A stretch of 32,191 bases of DNA, from contig QPGO01000027.1 in NCBI GenBank assembly GCA_008632985.1, positions 682,001 through 714,191 on the forward strand, in the 5' to 3' direction. Every line of letters starts with the position of its first letter. Within the stretch, counting starts at the first letter, position 1. Position numbers and translations under genes: made by a program. Below the pieces are notes generated by a model that worked only from the letters and a program-made list of their open reading frames with translations, was not told the DNA's origin and made no database searches. This DNA is from Psammoneis japonica. Lineage: Eukaryota. This document shows positions 19,026 through 31,538 of the stretch, piece after piece.

Positions 19026-21100
19026 TTACAGGATTCTTCTAGCTGACCACTCAAACCCGGCATTATCCAATGCCGCTATCCGTGCTTGGGTCAATGAACC
19101 AGGCTGTTTTTTATCTTGACTTTGTTTGTACATTCTGCGCTGGGTCGCGATCCAACGTCCGAGACGCTTGTTTTCCGAGTAATTGGTTGGCACATGGCAA
19201 TGTCAATGAACAGCTCTAAATTGCATTAACTCATCATACATGGCATTCCAATTACTCGTTTGCAGTGACCATTCGAATCCAGCTCCTTCCAATGCGTTAA
19301 TGCGACCTGGCGTCATTGAACAAGACTTCTTTTTGTTTTGGTAACGCTTGTAATGTATTCGCTGCTGAGAAATCCACCGGGCGAGTCGTTTGTTCTCCGG
19401 ATAGACATTCGGCACGCGACAATGCCCGTGAATGGCTTTGAATCGCAAAAGCTCATCAAACATAACATGCCATCCCTTTCCTTGTACCGGCCATTCAAAT
19501 CCTACATCTTCCAATGCTCTTCCCCGGTCTGTCGTCAATGCGCATGGCTGGGTATTGTCTTGACAGCTTTTGAAAGCTGTACGTTGCCTCGCAACCCAAC
19601 TATATAGGGATTTATTCTCTGAGTCATTAGGGACACGACAATGCCCATGCGTAGCTTTGAATTCCAACAACTCATTGAACCAGTCATTCCATTTCCCCGT
19701 TGTTGTCGACCACTCAAATCCGGCATCTTCCAATGCTCTTATCCGATCACGCGTCATGGGACAAGGCTTCTCTTCGTTTTTAAACTTCTTGTAGTCGGAA
19801 CGCTGTGTTGCGACACAATTGCCTAGCCGTTTGTTTTCAGAGTACGGACACGGGACACGACAATGGAGGTGAATTGTCTTGAATTCCAATGACTCGTTTA
19901 ACATCAAATTCCACTCCTCGCTGATAGCGTCCCTGCGAAACCACTCGAATCCTGCATCTTCCAATTGTCTTATGCGATCAGGTGTGATCTGGCAAGGCTT
20001 GTTGTTTTGATGACGCTTAAAGCACGCACGCTGGTTCATCACCCAATGTGCGAGTCGACTGTTTTCCGAATAAGATGTTGGCACTCGACAATGCCCATGA
20101 AAAGCTTTGAATTCCAACTGTTCGTTGAGCATGCGCTTCCAACTGGAATTGTCAAGAGCCGTTCTTCCTCGCGGCACTGACCACTCAAATCCTGCGTCTT
20201 CCAGAGCTTTCAGACGATCCGGAGTCATTGAGCAAGGCTTGCTTTTGTTTTGACAACGCTTGCAGTTCCTGCGCTGTGTTGCGACCCAATGTGCGAGGCG
20301 TTTGTTTTCCGAATGAGACATTGGGACATGACAATGCCCATGAACAGAGCTTTGAATTCTAACAGTTCGTTGAGCATGCGCTTCCAACTGGAATTGTCAA
20401 GAGCCATTCTTCCTCGCGGCTCTGACCACTCAAATCCTGCGTCTTCCAGAGCTTTCAGATGATCCGGAGTCATTGAGCAAGGCTTGCTTTTGTTTTGACA
20501 ATGCTTGTAATTCCTGCACTGCGTCATGACCCAAAGTGCGAGACGTTTGTTTTCCGAACAATGCTGCGGGACACGACAATGTCCATGAGCAGCTTTGAAT
20601 TCTAATGGTTCATTGAGCATGTGCTTCCAACTGGAATTGTCAAGAGCTGTTCTTCCTCCCGGCACTGACCACTCGAATCCTGCATCTTCCAGAGCTTTCA
20701 GACGATCTAGAGTCATTGAGCAAGGCTTGCTTTTGTTTTGACAACACTTGCAATTCCTGCACTGCGTTGTGACCCAAAGTGCGAGGTGTTTGTTTTCCAA
20801 ATAATGCCATGGGACATGACAATGTCCATGACTGGCTTTGAGCTCCAGCAATTTGCTGAGCATGAGGTGCCACTGAGCATCTCGGGGAGATTGGTTGAGG
20901 TCGAAGCCGATGTCGTTCAGCTGGGCTCTTTGCTCTTCTGTGAGAGGTGACTTGTGATTGCTCAATTTTTCTTCAAATCCCTTGCATTGTTGGCTTGTCC
21001 AACAGCCCAAAGAAGAGCTTGTCGGTGCAATGAGATGCCCATTCTTTTCTTTGAAGTCAACCAACTCTTGGAGTCGACGTTGCCACTCATCTTTGTGAGC
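19026..21100 (-). pseudogene. Multi-HA-domain (9 units) protein pseudogene
   Basis: Nine W..M..EL.EFK..HGHC.VP..Y.EN..L..WV..QR...MT..R...LE..GFEW units. Disruptions: 2-bp insertion near 20345, premature TGA at 19203-19205 (H*HC for HGHC), and many Y>C/H and R>C/H changes. True stop TAA at 19026-19028. The 5' end is not resolved. Confidence 0.85.
20150..20880. repeat. Three highly similar 243-bp tandem units (81 codons) within the HA gene
   Basis: Anchor CCACTC(A/G)AATCCTGC at 20181, 20426 and 20669. Spacings are 245 (includes the 2-bp insertion) and 243. Confidence 0.9.
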
Positions 21101-21575
21101 TGCAGCGGGTCTCAGTTCTAGTTGTGCTGTGACAGCCCACGAACACGTTCGACATTGTTTACGTTTGAACAATAAATCCTCATAACACGATCTGCCAATG
21201 GGTGGTGAGTGGAAACCTCTGCTTTTGTGGACTGAACCAGAAGCGAAAAGGCCTCGTTTTTGTTTGCACAGAAGCAGATTGCGAAGAACAAAACTGCAGA
21301 AAGAGATGACTGAGCCAGCTTCCAAAGAGACATTGACAGGGACTTCATACTTAGGTAAGATGCTGCGGTACAGTTGCGTCAGAAGTGGAATGTGCTTGGT
21401 ACAGCAGTGCTTGTTCATGCTCATCATGTGATCGCATATGTGCGCTGCGTGTTCAGTGTGCGTTTCGTGCGCGTCGCGTGGTCCAGGTCGGCAAACGGAC
21501 ATTGCGTGCATCTAGGCTTTTAGTCTGCCAGATTCAGATAGTCTACCGGTTACCGGTACGTTGGTATTCTTGACC

Positions 21576-22349
21576 ATGGCAACGGAGACGACAACCACCA
21601 CAACTCATGGACCGGATCCCGCCGTGATGGAAGCGATTGAGCGTGGAAATGCCGTCGTATTTTTTGATGTGGTTCTTGGGGAGGGGAAAGATTCTACGGC
21701 AGAGTTGGGTCGCATCAAACTAGAGCTCTTTGTCAAGGATGTAAGTACCGAATGGTGTGGCACTAGCACTCCTGTATTGTGCAACGTCTTATTTTGATCT
21801 GCCTTATTGACTCATTTTCATACAGTGCCCCAAGACTTGCGAAAATTTCCGTCAATTCTGCACCGGTGAATACCTCCAGAACTCTCAGCCTACCGGTTAT
21901 TTGAATTCCACCTTTCACCGTGTAATCAAAGACTTTATGCTACAAGGCGGCGACTTAATCAACCACGATGGTACAGGAAAGACAAGTATATATAATGGTG
22001 GTTCATCGTTTGAAGATGAGAATTTTTTTCACAAGCATGATCAACCCGGGACCCTTTCCATGGCAAACAGCGGACCAAATACGAATGGTGGGTTTCTTTC
22101 GTTTTCATTTCGTTGTATCGGTTCGTTTTCTCAGTCTCTTCGGGCAATTTAACGTGTGCTTAAACAGGGTGTCAGTTTTTTATTACCACCGCGAAAACCA
22201 GTTGGCTTGATGGGAAGCATGTTGTGTTTGGAAGGGTATTAGACGGACCGAGCATGTTGACCGTACGGAAATGTGAAGCAGTGCCTGTATCGGGGCAAAA
22301 TAATCGACCACGAATACCTATTCGGATTGTGCAATGTGGGGAACTCTAG
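21576..22349 (+). CDS. PPIH: Peptidyl-prolyl cis-trans isomerase H (spliceosomal cyclophilin)
   Basis: [83 protein letters not shown]. The [10 protein letters not shown] and TNGCQFF variants are PPIH-like. Introns 21741-21825 and 22088-22167. Confidence 0.88.
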
Positions 22350-22513
22350 CTAGCTAGAGCCGCCGAGAGAGGGGGGCAGACGCATTGCTATGATACGCAG
22401 TTGCTCGTGAGGATGGGCGCCAACTTACTATACCTGGTACCGTATGTTTTAACTAGCACTATGATAAAGCCGCCATGCGGCCAACTCGCTTCACCAGGGC
22501 ATGTTCTTGTTTA

Positions 22514-25237
22514 TTAATGAGCCAGTATGAACATGACAATGAGAAATATGGAATAAGCGACAAAGAAAAGGATGGCTGCTGCGTAGTCCACTGTCCTCAA
22601 CTTTTTCAGCCTTCTTTTCTTCTTCGAATCAGCCTCATTAAGTCCCTGAGGAAGAAGCCTATGGCTCCACCATGTCAAGCTCGTCAGTCGCTTTTTTCGT
22701 CCACTGCGTTTTCGCTCCCTAGTGGGGTGAGCGGTCGACTCCTCCAATTGCTCATTATCAACGTTCACTTCTGTGTCAAACCCAACGGTATATTCGCGAT
22801 CTTCCCTCTGAGTACCACTTTCCAGGGCGTTGATGCTGTTGTTATTGTTGTTGCTGTCGTCAATCAGATTACGGGTCTCTTCAATGTCTCCGTGCTCTTC
22901 CCTCTCACCCTCGTAGTCATTGTGAGCGTAAAAATACAACACAATAATTGACTCGACAATTCCAAACACCACAAACATTTTAGATCCAAATGAAAGGCGA
23001 TAAATCCAAAGAAACTCCTGCGTGACAGGAGTCGAGTCTGCCAATGTAATGTCTTGAGCAACAATCACAAAGAGAATAGACGAACCTGTATGAAAAAAGA
23101 TTTTGTGTGGTGAGATGGGAATATCATAGAGGCCATCTAACAAGATGCCACCGTGAAGTAACTCACCGTAGCCCAGTCGTTCTCCCAGATGAAAGTCGAC
23201 GAAGAACATTCCAAATGCAAGATATGTAAAAATAATGTAGAGAGCAACAAACAGGTACACGTAGTATCGTTTCGCCCTCGCAAACGTAAAATCAAAACGA
23301 ACTAGCTTGTTCTCAAACCCAGACAGTTGTTCAGTTCTGAACGACACTCTTGTTTTGCGAATGTCGAGCTTGTATTCTTGGTAATTCCAAGAGCTGTCGC
23401 TTACCCGTGCGCTGTACTCAACGGATTTATTGGCAGGAACATAATTGACCCGATGATAGAGAGGATCCATCGTGCCACCAAACTCCATGTGACATTCTAC
23501 AAAAAGGCAAAACGAAGAGTGAGGAAAACGGCAAAAGCCTGAAGTGGACGTGATACGGCGCTTACCTGTCTTATCAAAGGGAAAGTCTTCGATACCAGAG
23601 AGATCACAAATAGCTGCTAGTACTCCTGTGCGCCTCCATTTCACATATCCATCATAGCGCACTGACGCATGTGCTTCGGGCAAGCTTTGAACGCCCCTTA
23701 CCATATTTACGAGCTCCATGTTTGGAACCCACAGTTCTGTCTGTTCCGCGTCAACCGATGCCCTGAAAGAAGATCGATGGCAACCCCCAATAAAGGGTTC
23801 CCACACAAGACGTGGATCATACCATTCCAACTCTAGCGACATTAAAATCTGCATCGAGTTTGTCTTTACTTCAATCTCCAATGCGTGCGAGATATCCAAA
23901 GAAATCTTGACGTCGACAGCATCTTTGCTGCTGAAGAAAGGATCTTCTTCCTTTGGTGATGGATCGACCGGAGTTATGGTATTGTACTTATCGACAAGAG
24001 CATCATGGATCTGGCTTTCACACTCGTAATTTGCCCGCGTGTCATCACAACACGCCTCTTCAAAGAACGCACGGCCAATCTCACATGCGTAGGTCGAGAC
24101 GTCCTCTTTTATCAAGAGGGCGTCAAGCTGGCTACATGACCATCCATCAGTATCCGGATAGAGTTCTAGCCAATCCTTTGGGTACTCTCGAATTGTGCCG
24201 TTGAAGAGTTTGGCTTCTGTAGCACCGCAAATGTTGCAGTCGTCCGACAAGGGCAAAAAGTCAAGTTCGAGGTCCACCTCCTGGATGGTCACGCCTTGAC
24301 TTTGAATTGTCTCTGCATCCAAAATAGAACTGTTCTCGTTAAGTCGATATTCTGGAATACCAAGAGGGTTATTAATCACAATGTCTCGCAGAATAAAGTG
24401 TACGTGGCCGCCTTGATCTGAGTCAACGAGTTGAATCGAACACAGTTTTGCATCATCGTTGTTTTGGGTGCTACAGCGAAACAGCATTGCACCATGTCGA
24501 CTCCAGTAAACGTTTCCATTGGGTAAAATTATTGCCGTTGTGTCGACGAGTGGCTCTCTTGTTCCCTGATCATGAGGGACGAGATGCGGCGTCCAAATGT
24601 CGGTGCGTCGGACCTCAAACCCTGTGCACGGTGCAATAGAGGAAGAACTCCACCTCAGCCGTTCATCCGTCCATTGTAAGTGGAGAGATCCTACTATTTC
24701 AATGGCACCACCATCAATGCCATGATCGACGATATGCATTTCATCAAAGAGCTCCACTACCAAGCTAGCATTCACCGCAATCCCTTTGGAAATGGGTGGA
24801 ACGTACTTGTCATAACTCGCATTGCTGCCCGTGAGCAGAGCCTCTCTCATTGTAGCTTCACATTCAAACAAAGGAGGCACATTATCACAACATTGTCGGA
24901 AAAGCCAGTCACGTAGCGCAAGACAGTCAAACCCTTCGTTTCGTTCCGCATAAGTTGCCCAATCCGCACAAGTAAGGTTGTTGTTCTGCACCATGGCTTT
25001 GCCTGCTGTTGCGTTATCAAAGGATACGCGGGCAGCCGCTTCTGTTGTTCTGGGACGAGTATTGTTTAGAATCAAAAATCCAGGCAGGCAAATGTTGCAT
25101 TGACCTGTATTATTCTGTTCCTGAAGCGTCCTTCTTGGTGTTGCGATGCTTTGGCTCGCAACAGTACCGACAAAATTAAGAATCGCCATGAGATATGCTG
25201 AAAGAATCAGAACGTCGTATCGCTTCAACTTAAACAT
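22514..25237 (-). CDS. Pentameric ligand-gated (Cys-loop-type) ion channel subunit with a duplicated extracellular region
   Basis: Signal peptide, two ligand-binding-domain-like blocks (WTDERLRW..IWTPHL..NGNVYW and WYDPRLVW..LWVPNM..YDGYVKW..C..EDFPFD..C), four TM helices with GERLGYG before M2. Two stop-free in-frame introns, 23497-23565 and 23086-23166, are read through by the ORF track. Confidence 0.85.
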   Translation of the reverse strand: MFKLKRYDVLILSAYLMAILNFVGTVASQSIATPRRTLQEQNNTGQCNICLPGFLILNNTRPRTTEAAARVSFDNATAGKAMVQNNNLTCADWATYAERNEGFDCLALRDWLFRQCCDNVPPLFECEATMREALLTGSNASYDKYVPPISKGIAVNASLVVELFDEMHIVDHGIDGGAIEIVGSLHLQWTDERLRWSSSSIAPCTGFEVRRTDIWTPHLVPHDQGTREPLVDTTAIILPNGNVYWSRHGAMLFRCSTQNNDDAKLCSIQLVDSDQGGHVHFILRDIVINNPLGIPEYRLNENSSILDAETIQSQGVTIQEVDLELDFLPLSDDCNICGATEAKLFNGTIREYPKDWLELYPDTDGWSCSQLDALLIKEDVSTYACEIGRAFFEEACCDDTRANYECESQIHDALVDKYNTITPVDPSPKEEDPFFSSKDAVDVKISLDISHALEIEVKTNSMQILMSLELEWYDPRLVWEPFIGGCHRSSFRASVDAEQTELWVPNMELVNMVRGVQSLPEAHASVRYDGYVKWRRTGVLAAICDLSGIEDFPFDKTGKRRITSTSGFCRFPHSSFCLFVECHMEFGGTMDPLYHRVNYVPANKSVEYSARVSDSSWNYQEYKLDIRKTRVSFRTEQLSGFENKLVRFDFTFARAKRYYVYLFVALYIIFTYLAFGMFFVDFHLGERLGYGELLHGGILLDGLYDIPISPHKIFFHTGSSILFVIVAQDITLADSTPVTQEFLWIYRLSFGSKMFVVFGIVESIIVLYFYAHNDYEGEREEHGDIEETRNLIDDSNNNNNSINALESGTQREDREYTVGFDTEVNVDNEQLEESTAHPTRERKRSGRKKRLTSLTWWSHRLLPQGLNEADSKKKRRLKKLRTVDYAAAILFFVAYSIFLIVMFILAH

Positions 25238-25633
25238 TTTTTAAACAGTTTCTTCCTATGGAGCGCCTTCTACTTTATAGATCTGCAGTATAAACTTCGT
25301 TGGCAATTTGTTATTGCTTCTCAAACTCGAAAAGCAACGATCTCATCGTCTTCTCATGTTGTTGTTGCTGTAGTTGCAGATCTCCCAGTGTTCGCGAGCG
25401 AACATAAAAATACACACATCTCTGAAGTAAAATATAAAACGTACGACTGGATTTTCCCACGATCCGATCTTTCAGTCACGAGCACTAATTGAATAGAAAA
25501 AAAGTGAAAGTTGATTATTAGCAAATTATGGAATGAATATGGTAAAATGTTAGTACTCTATCTTTCAAGCATCTGTTGCGGCCAGAATTCTCAATTCTTT
25601 TCTCAAAAGATTTTCGGTTCTCACATCGTCGCC

Positions 25634-27079: not shown

Positions 27080-28630
27080 TCACTCCGCCGCCTCAAACTC
27101 GCTCAGCGTCGTCACTCGGCCCCTCGTGTGTGCTGCCACACTATAACAGGTAGAGCTCTCGCAGCCCACCGGTACAACCTCCCAAGCCGGGAGTGAGCAG
27201 CCTCCACGAGAGAGCTTCTGCACTTCTTTGAACATTTTGCACTGCAGTCCTGACTCGCTCCCTCTCACAATTGAATGAAATGAACACCCTCTGTTGCTCC
27301 AGCTCTCTGCTGGTGAGCTGAAATCTGGCAGACACTCTCTGAGAGCAGCAGCCAGACCTTCCATCTGTCTTTGCTCATCTTTGGCTGCCAATGGCAACCT
27401 GGAACTCTAAGAAACCAGTGGGCAATTCACAGGGGCAGAACCATTCTCCTCACATGAAATCATGGCCAACCTCTTGTGAGAGTCCACACTGTGTCAGTGA
27501 GTCATTGTGGGCCATGGCACACAGCCTGTGTCATCCACTTTTGATCAAACTTTGACCCAAAAAGTGTCACCTCAAAATCATCAACAACATGCCCCTGGTT
27601 GTCCACTGCATTGTGTTCCAAGCACAATGTTGGGGTGGAGTCTCATCTCATTGACAGAGTGCTCCAGCCATGTCAACATTTTGGTTGACAAAAAGGAGTG
27701 GAGCATGAAGTGCGCACTTTTCTGGCATGCTTGGAGCTGTCTGTCTTTGTGGCCTGCTGCACCCATGTGCCCAGATCACAGATCACCCTTGCTGCTCTGG
27801 GCCAAAGCCCAGTGTGCAAAACTGTTGTGCGCCATGTGCTTCTCACAATCTGCAAGAGAAAATGGGCATCACCTGAGCTGCTGAGACCCCACAGCATCAA
27901 AAAAATGCTGGTGGTGAGGCACATCAATGGGAGGACAAGGTCTCTAAAGCAGTTGTGAGGCTGCTTTGCACACTGACCTTCTGTTTTAGCAACATTGATG
28001 GTCTTTGCCAAAAGGTCTGACTGGCAACAGCATGGCTGAATTTGCTCAAAAGATGCCCCTGGCTGCACATGTGTGTGCCTCCCTCTTTCCCCGCAGGTGA
28101 CCACATGCCGTGGCACCAAGATCTGCAGCAACAACAGCATGCTGGGTGATGCTGGCCATGGCATTGTCAGGTCCCCCATCACGAGGATGTGGAGCAGTGT
28201 CAAGAAAGGCAAGAACATGCTGTTGACATCTGGGCATCTGCAGCAAGAGTGCTCAACTCACTTTCTTGCACCAGCTGCTCAATGAGCAACTTTGCACTTG
28301 GAGCACTGCCGACGAGGAGGCCTCCTTTTTTGGCTTGCCAGAGCCAAGTGCAAATGACCCTGAGAGATCATTTTGCATGAAGCTGCTGGGACCACTTGTG
28401 TCTTTGGGCTGACTTGCATCTTCACAACCCAGACTCTCTCTTGTCACCTTCAGGAACAAAAGGGGGGGTCAACAAACACTGGGGGCTTCCCACCCCTCCT
28501 TTCTGTGGGCTCTGCTGCCGTGCTTCTGCACCCACAAATTCTTGCAGATCATTTTCTCTGTGCTGGGAGGGACTTGAGTGCTTGTGGTGCCACTGCTGAG
28601 AGCCAAAATCTTTCAGCCATTTTTCTGCTC

Positions 28631-28673
<43 letters not shown>

Positions 28674-28772
28674 TGCTGCTGTCTCCTGCTCCTGGGTTTT
28701 CAAAGCACAGCCCACTTTTTCCCACTTTGTTTCTTGTGCTTTGAACTTTTCTTGGTGCCTGCCTGGTGCCAT
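27080..28772 (-). pseudogene. Heavily mutated relic of an unidentified protein-coding gene or element ORF
   Basis: ORF fragments 28253..28459, 28046..28246, 27581..27766 and 27080..27397 share one frame. Several breaks are TGA (compatible with CGA>TGA), but in-frame TAA/TAG also occur. No domain recognised. Confidence 0.35.
28634..28671. repeat. (CT)19 microsatellite
   Basis: Perfect CT dinucleotide run, followed by short (GCT)n. Confidence 0.95.
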
Positions 28773-29058
28773 TGTTCTTTGTTGGATGATTGTGAAATCA
28801 AAGGTCAAAACTGCATGGTGGTGTTTGTTGTGTTTCTCGGAAAGATGTTCGTTTGTGCCAGTCATCTCACAGGTTGTGCTGCACCGGCAGCGAGGTTGCA
28901 CCATGCAATGCAATGATTTATTGCCAACGCGAGCGTGAGAGGTTGGCGCTCGCTGCGAAGCTTCTGATCTGATTGGCACGGCTGAATCACTCTCATGATG
29001 GCAAAGATTTCATGATCGTGGCTGGTTGACGACAAGCCCATAACCCACATCAACAAAT

Positions 29059-29186
29059 TACTTCGAGCCAAAGTAAGCTAAATGGTTAACGATGTTCCTT
29101 AATTAAAAATTCTACTTCGGCTCAAAGACAGCTAAATGGTTGACGAAATCCCCTAATTAAAGACAGCTAAATGGTTAACGATGTAG
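29059..29186. repeat. Short direct repeats, core AGCTAAATGGTTRACGA x3
   Basis: Cores at 29076, 29130 and 29165. The first two share an upstream TACTTCG..CAAAG and a downstream TAATTAAA. Confidence 0.85.
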
Positions 29187-29639
29187 AGTTGTGGGCACAA
29201 GTAAAATCGAATAGATAAAACAGGATGTCAAATACGAAATCATCATGTGTTTTCTGCACCAGTTAACTACAGCATTTACATGTTCATTTGGAAATGTCAA
29301 TTGGTTTTCTCTCTCTACATTCAATGCTCGCAACAATGCTGGTTTTCAGATCTCTGCATGGGCATCCAATCAAAATGGACAATGCACACCTTTTGCAGCA
29401 AAGACAAATCAACCCATCTGGCATTGCAGCATCCTTTCAATCCACACTCAACAGAGGCGAGCACACGCCAAAGACTTGCAGAGAGAACAAAAGGCTCTTG
29501 AGCACACAAAACAAGAACAGAGTTGATGCACCCCTCTTGTTTTGAAGCTTGGGCCCTCAAGTGGCGCATGGTTTGGCTGGCTCTGCAGCTGGTTGGGAGG
29601 TTGATGGCTTTTTCATGACTCACAGCTTGAGGCTTCTTG

Positions 29640-31000
29640 TTGGCACACGAGCTCGCCCGTGCAATGTCGCCTTTCGAGCCTGCTGCTTGCTGGAGCTGAG
29701 ATCATGTGGACAGCTCTCCACATGCCTGGGCTTTGTCATTCAGGTGCTCAATCACAAAATCATCTTCTCTTGCACTGTGGCTGCTTGGCTTTCATCAACA
29801 AAATCTGCAGCAGCCCAGGCCATCCTGAGCACTCGTGACAAAACAGCTCTCCTGCAAAACCCTTCTGCTTGTCCCCCCCCCAGAGTGGTTCTTGGCAACA
29901 GTGCCACCCACAAACCAAGCTGCAGTCACGACTGTTTGCTGAGCTGCCAGCTGAGAAATTAAAACCAAGGTTGAGAGCTGAGCATGAGACCTCCTGTGAG
30001 ATGTGCCTGCAACAAGCCTCTCCACACAGCCGTGCTGCACATGGGGTCTGAAGCAAGAGGCACATGTTTTGATGCACAAGCACATGTGCAATGTCACCTT
30101 TGGAGCACGCTGCTCACTGGAGCTTGAGCAGAGGACAGCTCTCTGTGTGCAAACCATGTCTGTCAGATGCTCAGTCACAAAAACATCTTCTCTTGCTGTG
30201 GCTGCTTGGCTTCCATCAAAAGAAAGTTCCCACAACCCAGGCTGCCCCAGCCACCATTGACAGAATGGCTCCTGCAAAACTTTTCTGCATGTTTCCCTCC
30301 TCCCCTGCAGAGCTGCTCTTGGCAACAGTGTTGTCTGCATGCCAGGCTCCAATCAAGATGGTCTGCCAAGCTGCACCAGCTGAGATGCCCAACTTGAGTT
30401 TGCAGGCTCCCAGAACCACAAGACACACAGAGGGCAGCAATGCACGTCTGGTGCTGGTGGCAATGCTGAGCTCTTCATTTGCAGCTTCCCAGGGGCACAC
30501 CCACACCTTCAGAACACCAGCACAACCACAAGAGTTGCCCTCCTTGTGCAGTCACAACAGCACGTTGCACCATCTGCAAAAGGAGTGCAGGCAGCCTGGC
30601 TCCTGGGCTGCATGCTGACCCCACATGCCACAGCTTTTCACAGCTGAGCAAGAGACGCCAGTGTTTCAAAAACCCTGAGCCAAGGTTGGAGCTGGCAGGA
30701 GCTNNNNNNNNNNNNNNNNNNNNNNNNNNNNNNNNNNNNNNNNNNNNNNNNNNNNNNNNNNNNGTGTTTGTCATTTGTTGGCACAGGCAGAACAACTTTG
30801 AGCTTGCTGTTGGACAAAAAAGCTCTGAGTGAGGTTGGGCCCAAGAGTCATTGAGCATGCTGAGTGCACAACCTGAGACATGCCAGCAACAAAACTCTCT
30901 GCACAGCAATGCAGCCAGAACCTCTCTCACTCTTCTCTCAAGAGCTTGCTCAGGACAACACACCAGGGTTTGAAAAGCAAGCAGCCAAGCTTGCATGTTT
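29640..31000. repeat. Degenerate ~427-bp tandem duplication/array of unknown origin
   Basis: GTGCAATGTC at 29659 and 30086, with collinear shared blocks (GGACAGCTCTC, CATCTTCTCTTGC, CTGTGGCTGCTTGGCTT, CTCCTGCAAAAC, TCTTGGCAACAGTG). Weaker similarity continues past the gap (~30875 vs ~29998). Confidence 0.7.
30704..30763. other. Assembly gap (60 N)
   Basis: Run of N characters. Confidence 0.99.
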
Positions 31001-31538
31001 TTCTTCTCCCTGGCCCTCCCCAGATGCAGCCTTTGAGCCAATGGTCACCCTGAAGTTGCAATGTGCACCCAGCTTTTGCCCCTGCGGCAACCACCCCAGA
31101 CCACAAAGAAGAAGCCAATGAATCTCTGGCCCTGCTTGCATGGTCAATTTTTGTGTGTGCATCGAATGGTTGAATCCCCTCCTTTTTCCCTTTTCCGTTA
31201 ATCGGCCACGAATATGAAAAAATTGCCCTCATGATAATGCACCATGATAGATCCTCTTGCTTTTGTCGCGCTTTTTTGCGTGAATGTCACAGTACAAAAT
31301 CTACATACGTACAGTACGTGAGTTCGAGCTCTCGACAGTACATAAAAGATCCACTCAACATACACTCCCACCAACAAGCAACAAGCAACACTCAACACCC
31401 AACACCAACACACCAAGCAAACAGGACGGAACTTACTATTCCAAGTTCACCAAGAAAAGAGAAACGATACATTGCATCTTGGTCGAATTGATTCCTCCCA
31501 TGCATTCTTTCGATTGATGAACGATACTAAAAAATAAC

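Follow-up and report, generated by a model that had tools for sequence, protein, structure and literature searches.

The window analyzed here, 32,191 bp of the genome of the diatom Psammoneis japonica (contig QPGO01000027.1, positions 682,001 to 714,191; G000:C24:682001-714191 in our notation), contains a minus-strand gene for helicase-associated (HA, PF03457) repeats, termed W in the following, whose front part lies in a hypermutated patch. Within it, both TpA (by A-to-G with a preceding T, on either strand) and CpG have given way to TpG or CpA; these changes run in one direction when compared with an intact paralogue, are spatially bounded and vary between the alleles. Across the HA genes sampled from the assembly (91 Mb, 597 contigs), near-identity of copies is neither sufficient nor necessary for being targeted. 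As explanation we favor, with moderate confidence, a regional TpA A-to-G mutator that, along with decay at CpG, targets gene copies which are redundant and silenced, and that does not respond to repeat likeness.

A profile search finds nine PF03457 units in W, running from 21096 to 19047 on the minus strand, with scores of 282.8 and 136.6 bits for the tandem units at a cut-off of 28.4, and W includes a 243-bp tandem array at 20041-20831 (3.2 copies, 87% matches). A search of the genome against itself revealed as relatives the second allele (C288:61-63.5 kb, 98%), the mutated paralogues P288 and P139, and the intact paralogue P24, which is located about 60 kb from W (G000:C24:640.4-643.4 kb) and encodes nine units in an intact open reading frame of 775 amino acids (aa). 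The parts of W and its patch are:

20072..21347, no strand: hypermutated island depleted of TpA and CpG, with 9 TA and 48 CG in 1276 bp
21098..21333, minus strand: non-repeated leader of W, ATG at 21333, with a hydrophobic, signal-like start; partly mutated and apparently of chimeric origin
20897..21096, minus strand: HA unit 1, unique in the array (52-61% identity to the other units), without TA
20181..20896, minus strand: HA units 2-4, young duplicates, 81-88% alike and heavily mutated
19941..20180, minus strand: HA unit 5, the patch edge, with TA changed at 3 of 6 and CG at 0 of 13 sites
19047..19940, minus strand: HA units 6-9, with 90-96% identity to units of P24 and essentially no mutation

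Compared with P24, units 2-5 changed 13 of 18 TA and 16 of 56 CG to TG or CA (reverse changes: 2 and 4), whereas units 6-9 did so at only 2 of 36 and 3 of 50 sites (reverse changes: 0 and 3), a contrast significant for TpA (Fisher p=6e-7) as well as CpG (p=0.002), with units 2 and 3 polarised against the best-matching P24 unit and not against strict orthologues. Tyrosine codons reflect the same boundary, with 3 in units 1-5 of W vs 12 in P24, and 9 vs 11 in units 6-9. From the gene-rich part of the window, about 47 TA and 75 CG would be expected in the patch; the TA deficit corresponds to a Poisson p=1e-11, with patch limits set after looking. The GC content stays at about 0.48 despite these changes. 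On the leader side, the 201 bp of unit 1 are free of TA and the leader has 4 in 250 bp. With 3.0 and 2.2 CpG per 100 bp, units 1 and 2 also show the deepest CpG loss, deeper than in the most alike pair 3-4 (3.7 and 5.3). Since unit 6 is unaltered relative to P24 (TA 0/8, CG 0/13), the patch edge falls inside unit 5. An earlier note, made from the letters of this window, had described a mutation load peaking on near-identical tandem copies and fading across diverged ones, with units 1-4 most and units 5-6 partly altered. The gradient itself is borne out, as is the partial state of unit 5; the copies are not near-identical, the unique, TA-free unit 1 does not fit a peak on duplicates, and unit 6 does not belong to the altered part.

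Among the surroundings of W, listed below, the two genes look unaffected, again in line with the earlier note, which had called both untouched: the cyclophilin gene has 4.7 TA and 5.3 CG per 100 bp, and the single-unit HA gene, judged without an outgroup for polarity, has 2.4 and 5.9. The next TA-free tract begins about 5.8 kb from the patch, with ordinary genes in between, and the genome as a whole is a patchwork of long tracts almost without CG and TA and otherwise ordinary DNA.

21578..22350, plus strand: cyclophilin (PPIH-like) gene, PF00160, head-to-head with W, unmutated, with paralogous copies on contigs C222, C149 and C49
4..969, plus strand: single-unit HA gene with an open frame, depletion not seen
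27151..31200, no strand: a pair of long tracts free of TA and CG, ascribed to the same process and given as context outside W

The base context of the process is best seen in a second pair of HA copies, the intact g7 and the mutated g63. Here, A was changed to G at 63 of 168 strand-sites in TpA, compared with 19 of 432 where the preceding base is A and 7 of 374 where it is G; C>T changes affected 36 of 279 sites at CpG vs 9 of 237 at CC and 11 of 311 at CT. In seven paralogue pairs both strands were changed, with 155 TG vs 111 CA products in coding orientation, i.e., a mild bias toward TG (p=0.008), and the fate of TpA depended on the next base (C 47%, 114/245; T 36%; G 22%; A 17%, 41/248). 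Reverse-type changes from TG or CA to TA amount to only 2 of 290 between W and P24.

The alleles of W differ at 14 sites inside 19941-21400, and 10 of these differences are TA- or CG-type changes; in the gene-rich flanks, this type makes up 23 of 104 differences (p=4e-4). It counts against our interpretation that the alleles are two assembled contigs and that one site is perhaps an assembly error, in which case 9 of 13 sites still give p=0.001. The CG type alone accounts for 7 of the 14 differences inside the patch region. As the alleles differ by the very changes that characterize the patch, this suggests that it went on mutating in place after the allele split. Furthermore, the outcome at one TpA site varies among the units of W, so that some changes must have occurred after duplication. 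W and P288, in turn, have some changes in common by descent. A further observation on timing comes from a heavily mutated helicase-HA copy (L113; C169:35.9-41.8 kb), where about 500 bp of unmutated, TA-rich DNA are inserted upstream of the HA array (at about 670 to 160 bp from it), which suggests either episodic mutation or a later insertion.

The question of whether copy identity chooses the target was addressed in a sample of about 60 HA loci taken from the best-scoring 150 of 545 candidates, which yielded 290 units and in which heavily decayed copies are under-sampled. TpA density correlated negatively with identity to the nearest internal copy at the level of units (rho -0.47; 277 units of 66 multi-unit genes, allele dropped; CpG only -0.12) and of genes (rho -0.43; 66 genes). 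Both regressions were discarded as pseudo-replicated: high-identity genes are confined to a few subfamilies, and the relation vanished once relatives were pooled (rho -0.12, p=0.45; 42 groups). The dependence proposed in the earlier note thus appears in the raw data and not after pooling. Within four young subfamilies, the internal identity of 10 mutated copies did not differ from that of 9 other copies (p=0.46), where copies were classed as mutated by visual judgement of TA profiles, loss of Tyr and the polarity of changes in pairs.

Individual cases demonstrate that near-identity is not sufficient. The longest exact run among units 2-4 of W is 41 bp; P24 contains a longer exact internal repeat (92 bp) and keeps its Tyr codons. 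Among the differences between units that are 87-99% alike, TpA sites are rare (g44 0/50, g43 2/40, g0 2/38, g4 0/3; pairs not independent). HA arrays of 96-99% identity are not being mutated, arrays of 700-900 bp that are 88-94% alike show no excess of TA-type differences, and a 98% direct duplicate (2 kb, copies 6.4 kb apart) has only 1 TA-type difference in 21. Three copies of the PPIH region that are 99.5-99.97% alike have normal TA, and may be assembly duplicates. Most of the non-HA coding tandem repeats found outside TA-free tracts in 670,632 bases likewise have 2.7-4.5 TA per 100 bp. The youngest duplicates are perhaps too recent to show mutation, which weakens this arm of the argument. 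The 98% duplicate concerns an intact gene of about 600 aa (G000:C24:658563-660520 and 664981-666953), the two copies of which flank a TA-depleted tract on both sides while being unmutated themselves.

Near-identity is not necessary either. With an internal identity of just 65-68%, g63 lost 62 of 85 TpA relative to g7 (reverse 0/17), and the gene extends into a TA-free tract. In P288, 11 of 16 TA are gone from the unique leader, and in four mutated helicase-HA copies 25 TA are found in 6320 bp of unique sequence vs 37 in 3235 bp of array, so that the unique 5' part is at 11% and the array at 46% of the TpA density of intact relatives. The idea of the earlier note that recent DNA-level duplication triggers the targeting thus finds no support where the near-identity of copies is concerned.

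Its wider suggestion that a host gene family and not only transposons would be affected is supported: 10 of 70 HA loci are clearly mutated copies, and all of them belong to three recently expanded subfamilies, each with intact members. Intact and mutated members stand side by side as P24 vs W, P288 and P139, as g7 vs g63, and as g43, g44, g58 and g60 vs g28, g52, g53, g56, g57 and g59; the degraded share in the three subfamilies amounts to 10 of 16 sampled copies. The changes are one-sided in the pairs P24/W, g7/g63 and g58/g59, many mutated copies carry stops (some perhaps due to assembly frameshifts), and in most of them the depletion declines toward the 3' end. In W itself, a 2-bp insertion near 20346 (units 2-4), present in both alleles, breaks the frame, and unit 9 has an in-frame TGA at 19203-19205, which was made by a transversion without any TA- or CG-type change. 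Recent gene conversion of units 6-9 from P24 was considered as the reason for their sparing and found no support, since they show as many transversions as unit 4. A unit tree calculated with TA and CG columns masked was poorly resolved, because the units are mosaics.

Taken as a redundant, broken and chimeric member of a young HA-repeat subfamily, W would have its front 1.3 kb in a small silenced patch. The recognized feature would be the silent state of a dispensable copy, laid over its 5' part and fading toward the 3' end, while the intact and presumably expressed copy is spared. CpG loss could be explained by decay of 5-methylcytosine (5mC), given that the accessible part of the literature describes diatom methylation as CG-type and located on repeat islands (PMC9998398), whereas TpA loss would be the work of another enzyme, probably one that deaminates adenine in silent chromatin. 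The correlation of young tandem arrays with damage would then arise because subfamilies of fast turnover yield both near-identical units and redundant copies. Domain searches of the genome gave 27 matches to PF00145 (C5 methyltransferase), one Piwi-domain locus and 9 matches to PF00383 (deaminase), none of which is linked to the process.

Several observations weigh against this explanation. The silent and expressed states of the copies are states that we infer. The sparing of units 6-9 in the broken W is not explained by a purely silent gene, nor is the position of the 3' edge: in W, P288 and P139, which differ in array length, it is close to where the tract of young units ends; the three edges are not independent cases, as changes in W and P288 are partly due to descent. 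In the arrays of g0, g4 and g11 (L061, L065, L072), Tyr is kept, but of 57 distinct silent sites just 10 have TpA, while pooled controls have it at 242 of 643 (p=0.002, for one among several groups that were tested). The frames of these genes are open except for one stop in g11, their N-terminal frames are normal, and their best internal identity is 85-98%; a possible reading is an array-directed exposure that was cleaned by selection. Finally, TA in one TPR array (85% internal identity) is down to 1.9 per 100 bp, compared with 4.7 in the flanks; the comparison is weak, as only two of the 20 loci have TPR arrays of high internal identity and one of these two is located inside a TA-free tract.

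Such points could be accommodated by a hybrid scenario in which tandem arrays seed silencing (e.g., by small RNAs from about 18 related young units of four paralogues), the mark extends over several hundred bases, for the most part in 5' direction, and transcription and purifying selection decide which copies survive. The edges near the young-tract end and the low silent TpA of the g0, g4 and g11 arrays with kept Tyr and normal N-terminal frames would be expected, the depletion of g57 is limited to its array, and the single Piwi-domain locus would also fit. In contrast, silent TpA sites counted once are not significantly depleted in the young units of P24 (8/31, p=0.25) or in g43 and g44 (97-99% alike; 8/24), helicase-HA copies lose more TpA in their unique parts than in their arrays, and most non-HA tandem repeats outside TA-free tracts are undepleted; altogether, we regard this scenario as worth keeping in mind, if unlikely. 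An apparent silent-site depletion of the P24 young units (9/54 vs 19/54, p=0.047) was lost once repeated sites were counted once and was therefore dropped. Along similar lines, one could speculate on a diatom gene-level defense in which small silent patches are seeded on tandem-repeat host genes located in open chromatin, TpA is edited by a DNA adenine deaminase and surplus copies of expanding families are retired, with survivors such as g0, g4 and g11 exposed but maintained by selection, having lost silent TpA while retaining Tyr; this version is a tentative one and rather doubtful.

An alternative option would be homology sensing that resembles repeat-induced point mutation (RIP), whereby a recent duplication is sensed directly at the DNA level and near-identical copies are mutated, with short spreading. 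The raw correlation and the TpA site differing among the units of W are what one would expect from it. The relation vanishes with subfamilies as the unit of comparison, mutated and intact copies do not differ in internal identity, TpA is rare among the differences of highly alike units as well as of the 98% duplicate, and usually only one partner of a pair is changed, which renders this option improbable.

The patch could also have been mutated elsewhere, in a copy bordering a TA-free domain, and have reached W by recombination, or could be the scar of a transposon once present at 21.1-21.5 kb. Here, the structure of W is relevant. Its first 95 bp (21251-21345) show 81% likeness to the start of another gene, which on contigs C222, C149 and C49 faces PPIH, and the segment 20878-21363 is 70% like C288:41561-42095, a relic bordering a TA-free tract of 7 kb; as far as can be told from its sequence, W is a chimera that newly combines a borrowed leader with an HA array. 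A short-read contig spans 20716-21602, so that the junction is no assembly artefact. This origin and the changes common to W and P288 speak for a transplant, whereas the TA- and CG-type allele differences inside the patch speak against it. With regard to a transposon, which the earlier note had named as a competing explanation of the gradient, no transposon-like repeat was detected at 21080-21600 by a search that skips very common words: the 9 matches are W itself, its allele, the C288 relative and PPIH-linked copies. An element excised without trace is conceivable, and we consider this whole group of explanations to be very improbable. Chance composition, or gene conversion between tandem units with a GC bias, would account for the low TpA of some intact arrays, where one ancestral unit is counted many times, and is next to excluded by changes that are one-directional and limited to TpA and CpG at a GC content of about 0.48, that also reach unique DNA, and that are as context-specific as from g7 to g63.

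Further observations concern W and its neighborhood. At position 21223 of the window the assembly differs by 2 bp from the allele and the short-read contig; this site decides the frame between leader and unit 1 and may be an assembly error. The sequencing run X2 gave a contig without the PPIH intron and little cover of the HA gene; as a run of unrecorded type, it carries no weight for the question of expression. The leaders of P24 (L003:1513-3840) and W (21250-21333) both have a hydrophobic start followed by an A-F junction, possibly akin to the bipartite plastid-targeting presequence of diatoms. HA arrays lacking a helicase may represent organelle nucleic-acid-binding repeat proteins. Among the matches listed, the eukaryotic relatives of the HA protein are diatoms, beside bacterial proteins; we take the diatoms to be Proboscia, Leptocylindrus and Pseudo-nitzschia multiseries. 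With its nine PF03457 units W agrees with other HA repeat proteins; it stands out by the lack of a helicase domain in its subfamily, the signal-like leader and its being a broken copy.

The three copies of the PPIH region are 3 kb each (L008, L009, L010) and lie on three contigs, and are either recent segmental copies or assembly duplicates. On the minus strand at 22514-25240, a frame of 908 codons contains two neurotransmitter-gated ion-channel ligand-binding domains (PF02931). The TA- and CG-free tracts at 27151-29050 and 29300-31200 are separated by a short spared stretch, with direct repeats of 26-49 bp at 29059-29184, and a direct repeat of 421 bp is found at 29734-30300.

The closest known parallel is the TpA hypermutation of integrated DNA of nucleocytoplasmic large DNA viruses (NCLDV) as well as of virophages in Bigelowiella natans (Mettrop et al., bioRxiv 10.64898/2026.01.13.699255). 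In the part of this preprint available to us, the main target is described as single-copy and transcriptionally silent, the rate in mutation-accumulation lines as raised about 1000-fold, and an ADAT-like enzyme acting as DNA adenine deaminase is proposed. The two systems agree in A>G/T>C changes confined to TpA (63/168 from g7 to g63, 13/18 in units 2-5 of W), in changes on both strands of a regional, bounded target (the patch at 20072-21347; the long tracts on contigs C24 and C288) and in silent DNA as target, the silence being deduced in our case. A largest target that is single-copy fits our result that duplication is not required. Unlike the viral or otherwise foreign DNA described there, the target here is a host PF03457 gene with an intact paralogue and diatom relatives, for which a remote bacterial family origin is possible. 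The patch differs further in being a 1.3-kb island between ordinary genes with CpG decay on the same patch, and it is known from sequence comparison, which gives no rate.

RIP in ascomycetes, as outlined in the accessible part of the literature, involves C>T changes with a CpA>TpA bias in repeats of more than 400 bp and at least 80% identity, depends on RID/DNMT4 and takes place before meiosis (PMC4522978). As far as this account goes, both processes consist of dinucleotide-specific transitions and inactivate duplicated host genes as well as transposons. However, RIP creates TpA and can hit the original copy, whereas the process seen in W removes TpA and leaves one copy intact (P24/W, g7/g63, g58/g59); moreover, repeats that would qualify for RIP are often spared here (the 98% 2-kb duplicate, the 88-94% arrays, the 99.5% PPIH copies), which a very recent origin could excuse in some cases. 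In diatoms, DNMT5-dependent 5mC is of CG type on repeat islands, with genes not being primary targets, according to the part of that study available to us (PMC9998398). Such methylation cannot account for A>G at TpA; the C>T excess at CpG (16/56 in units 2-5 vs 3/50 in units 6-9) is what 5mC decay predicts. No diatom report of a TpA-specific A-to-G mutator was found in the literature searched, which covered few subscription papers, and this literature contained nothing usable on diatom small RNA or on HA domains in diatoms.

A TpA-specific A-to-G mutator has thus been measured in one alga on viral insertions, and W displays the same signature on a redundant host gene. The patch is small and isolated amid working genes, and both an intact paralogue and a second allele can serve as controls. 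This makes the choice of target testable at the locus, and the finding that near-identity is neither enough nor needed points away from RIP-like homology sensing and toward chromatin state. If a gene-level defense of the kind considered above were true, it would represent the A-to-G counterpart of RIP on host gene families. For analyses of diatom paralogues, the process is relevant as it biases codon, dating and selection estimates; in effect, it prunes young gene families, as reflected by the degraded majority of the copies sampled in the three HA subfamilies.

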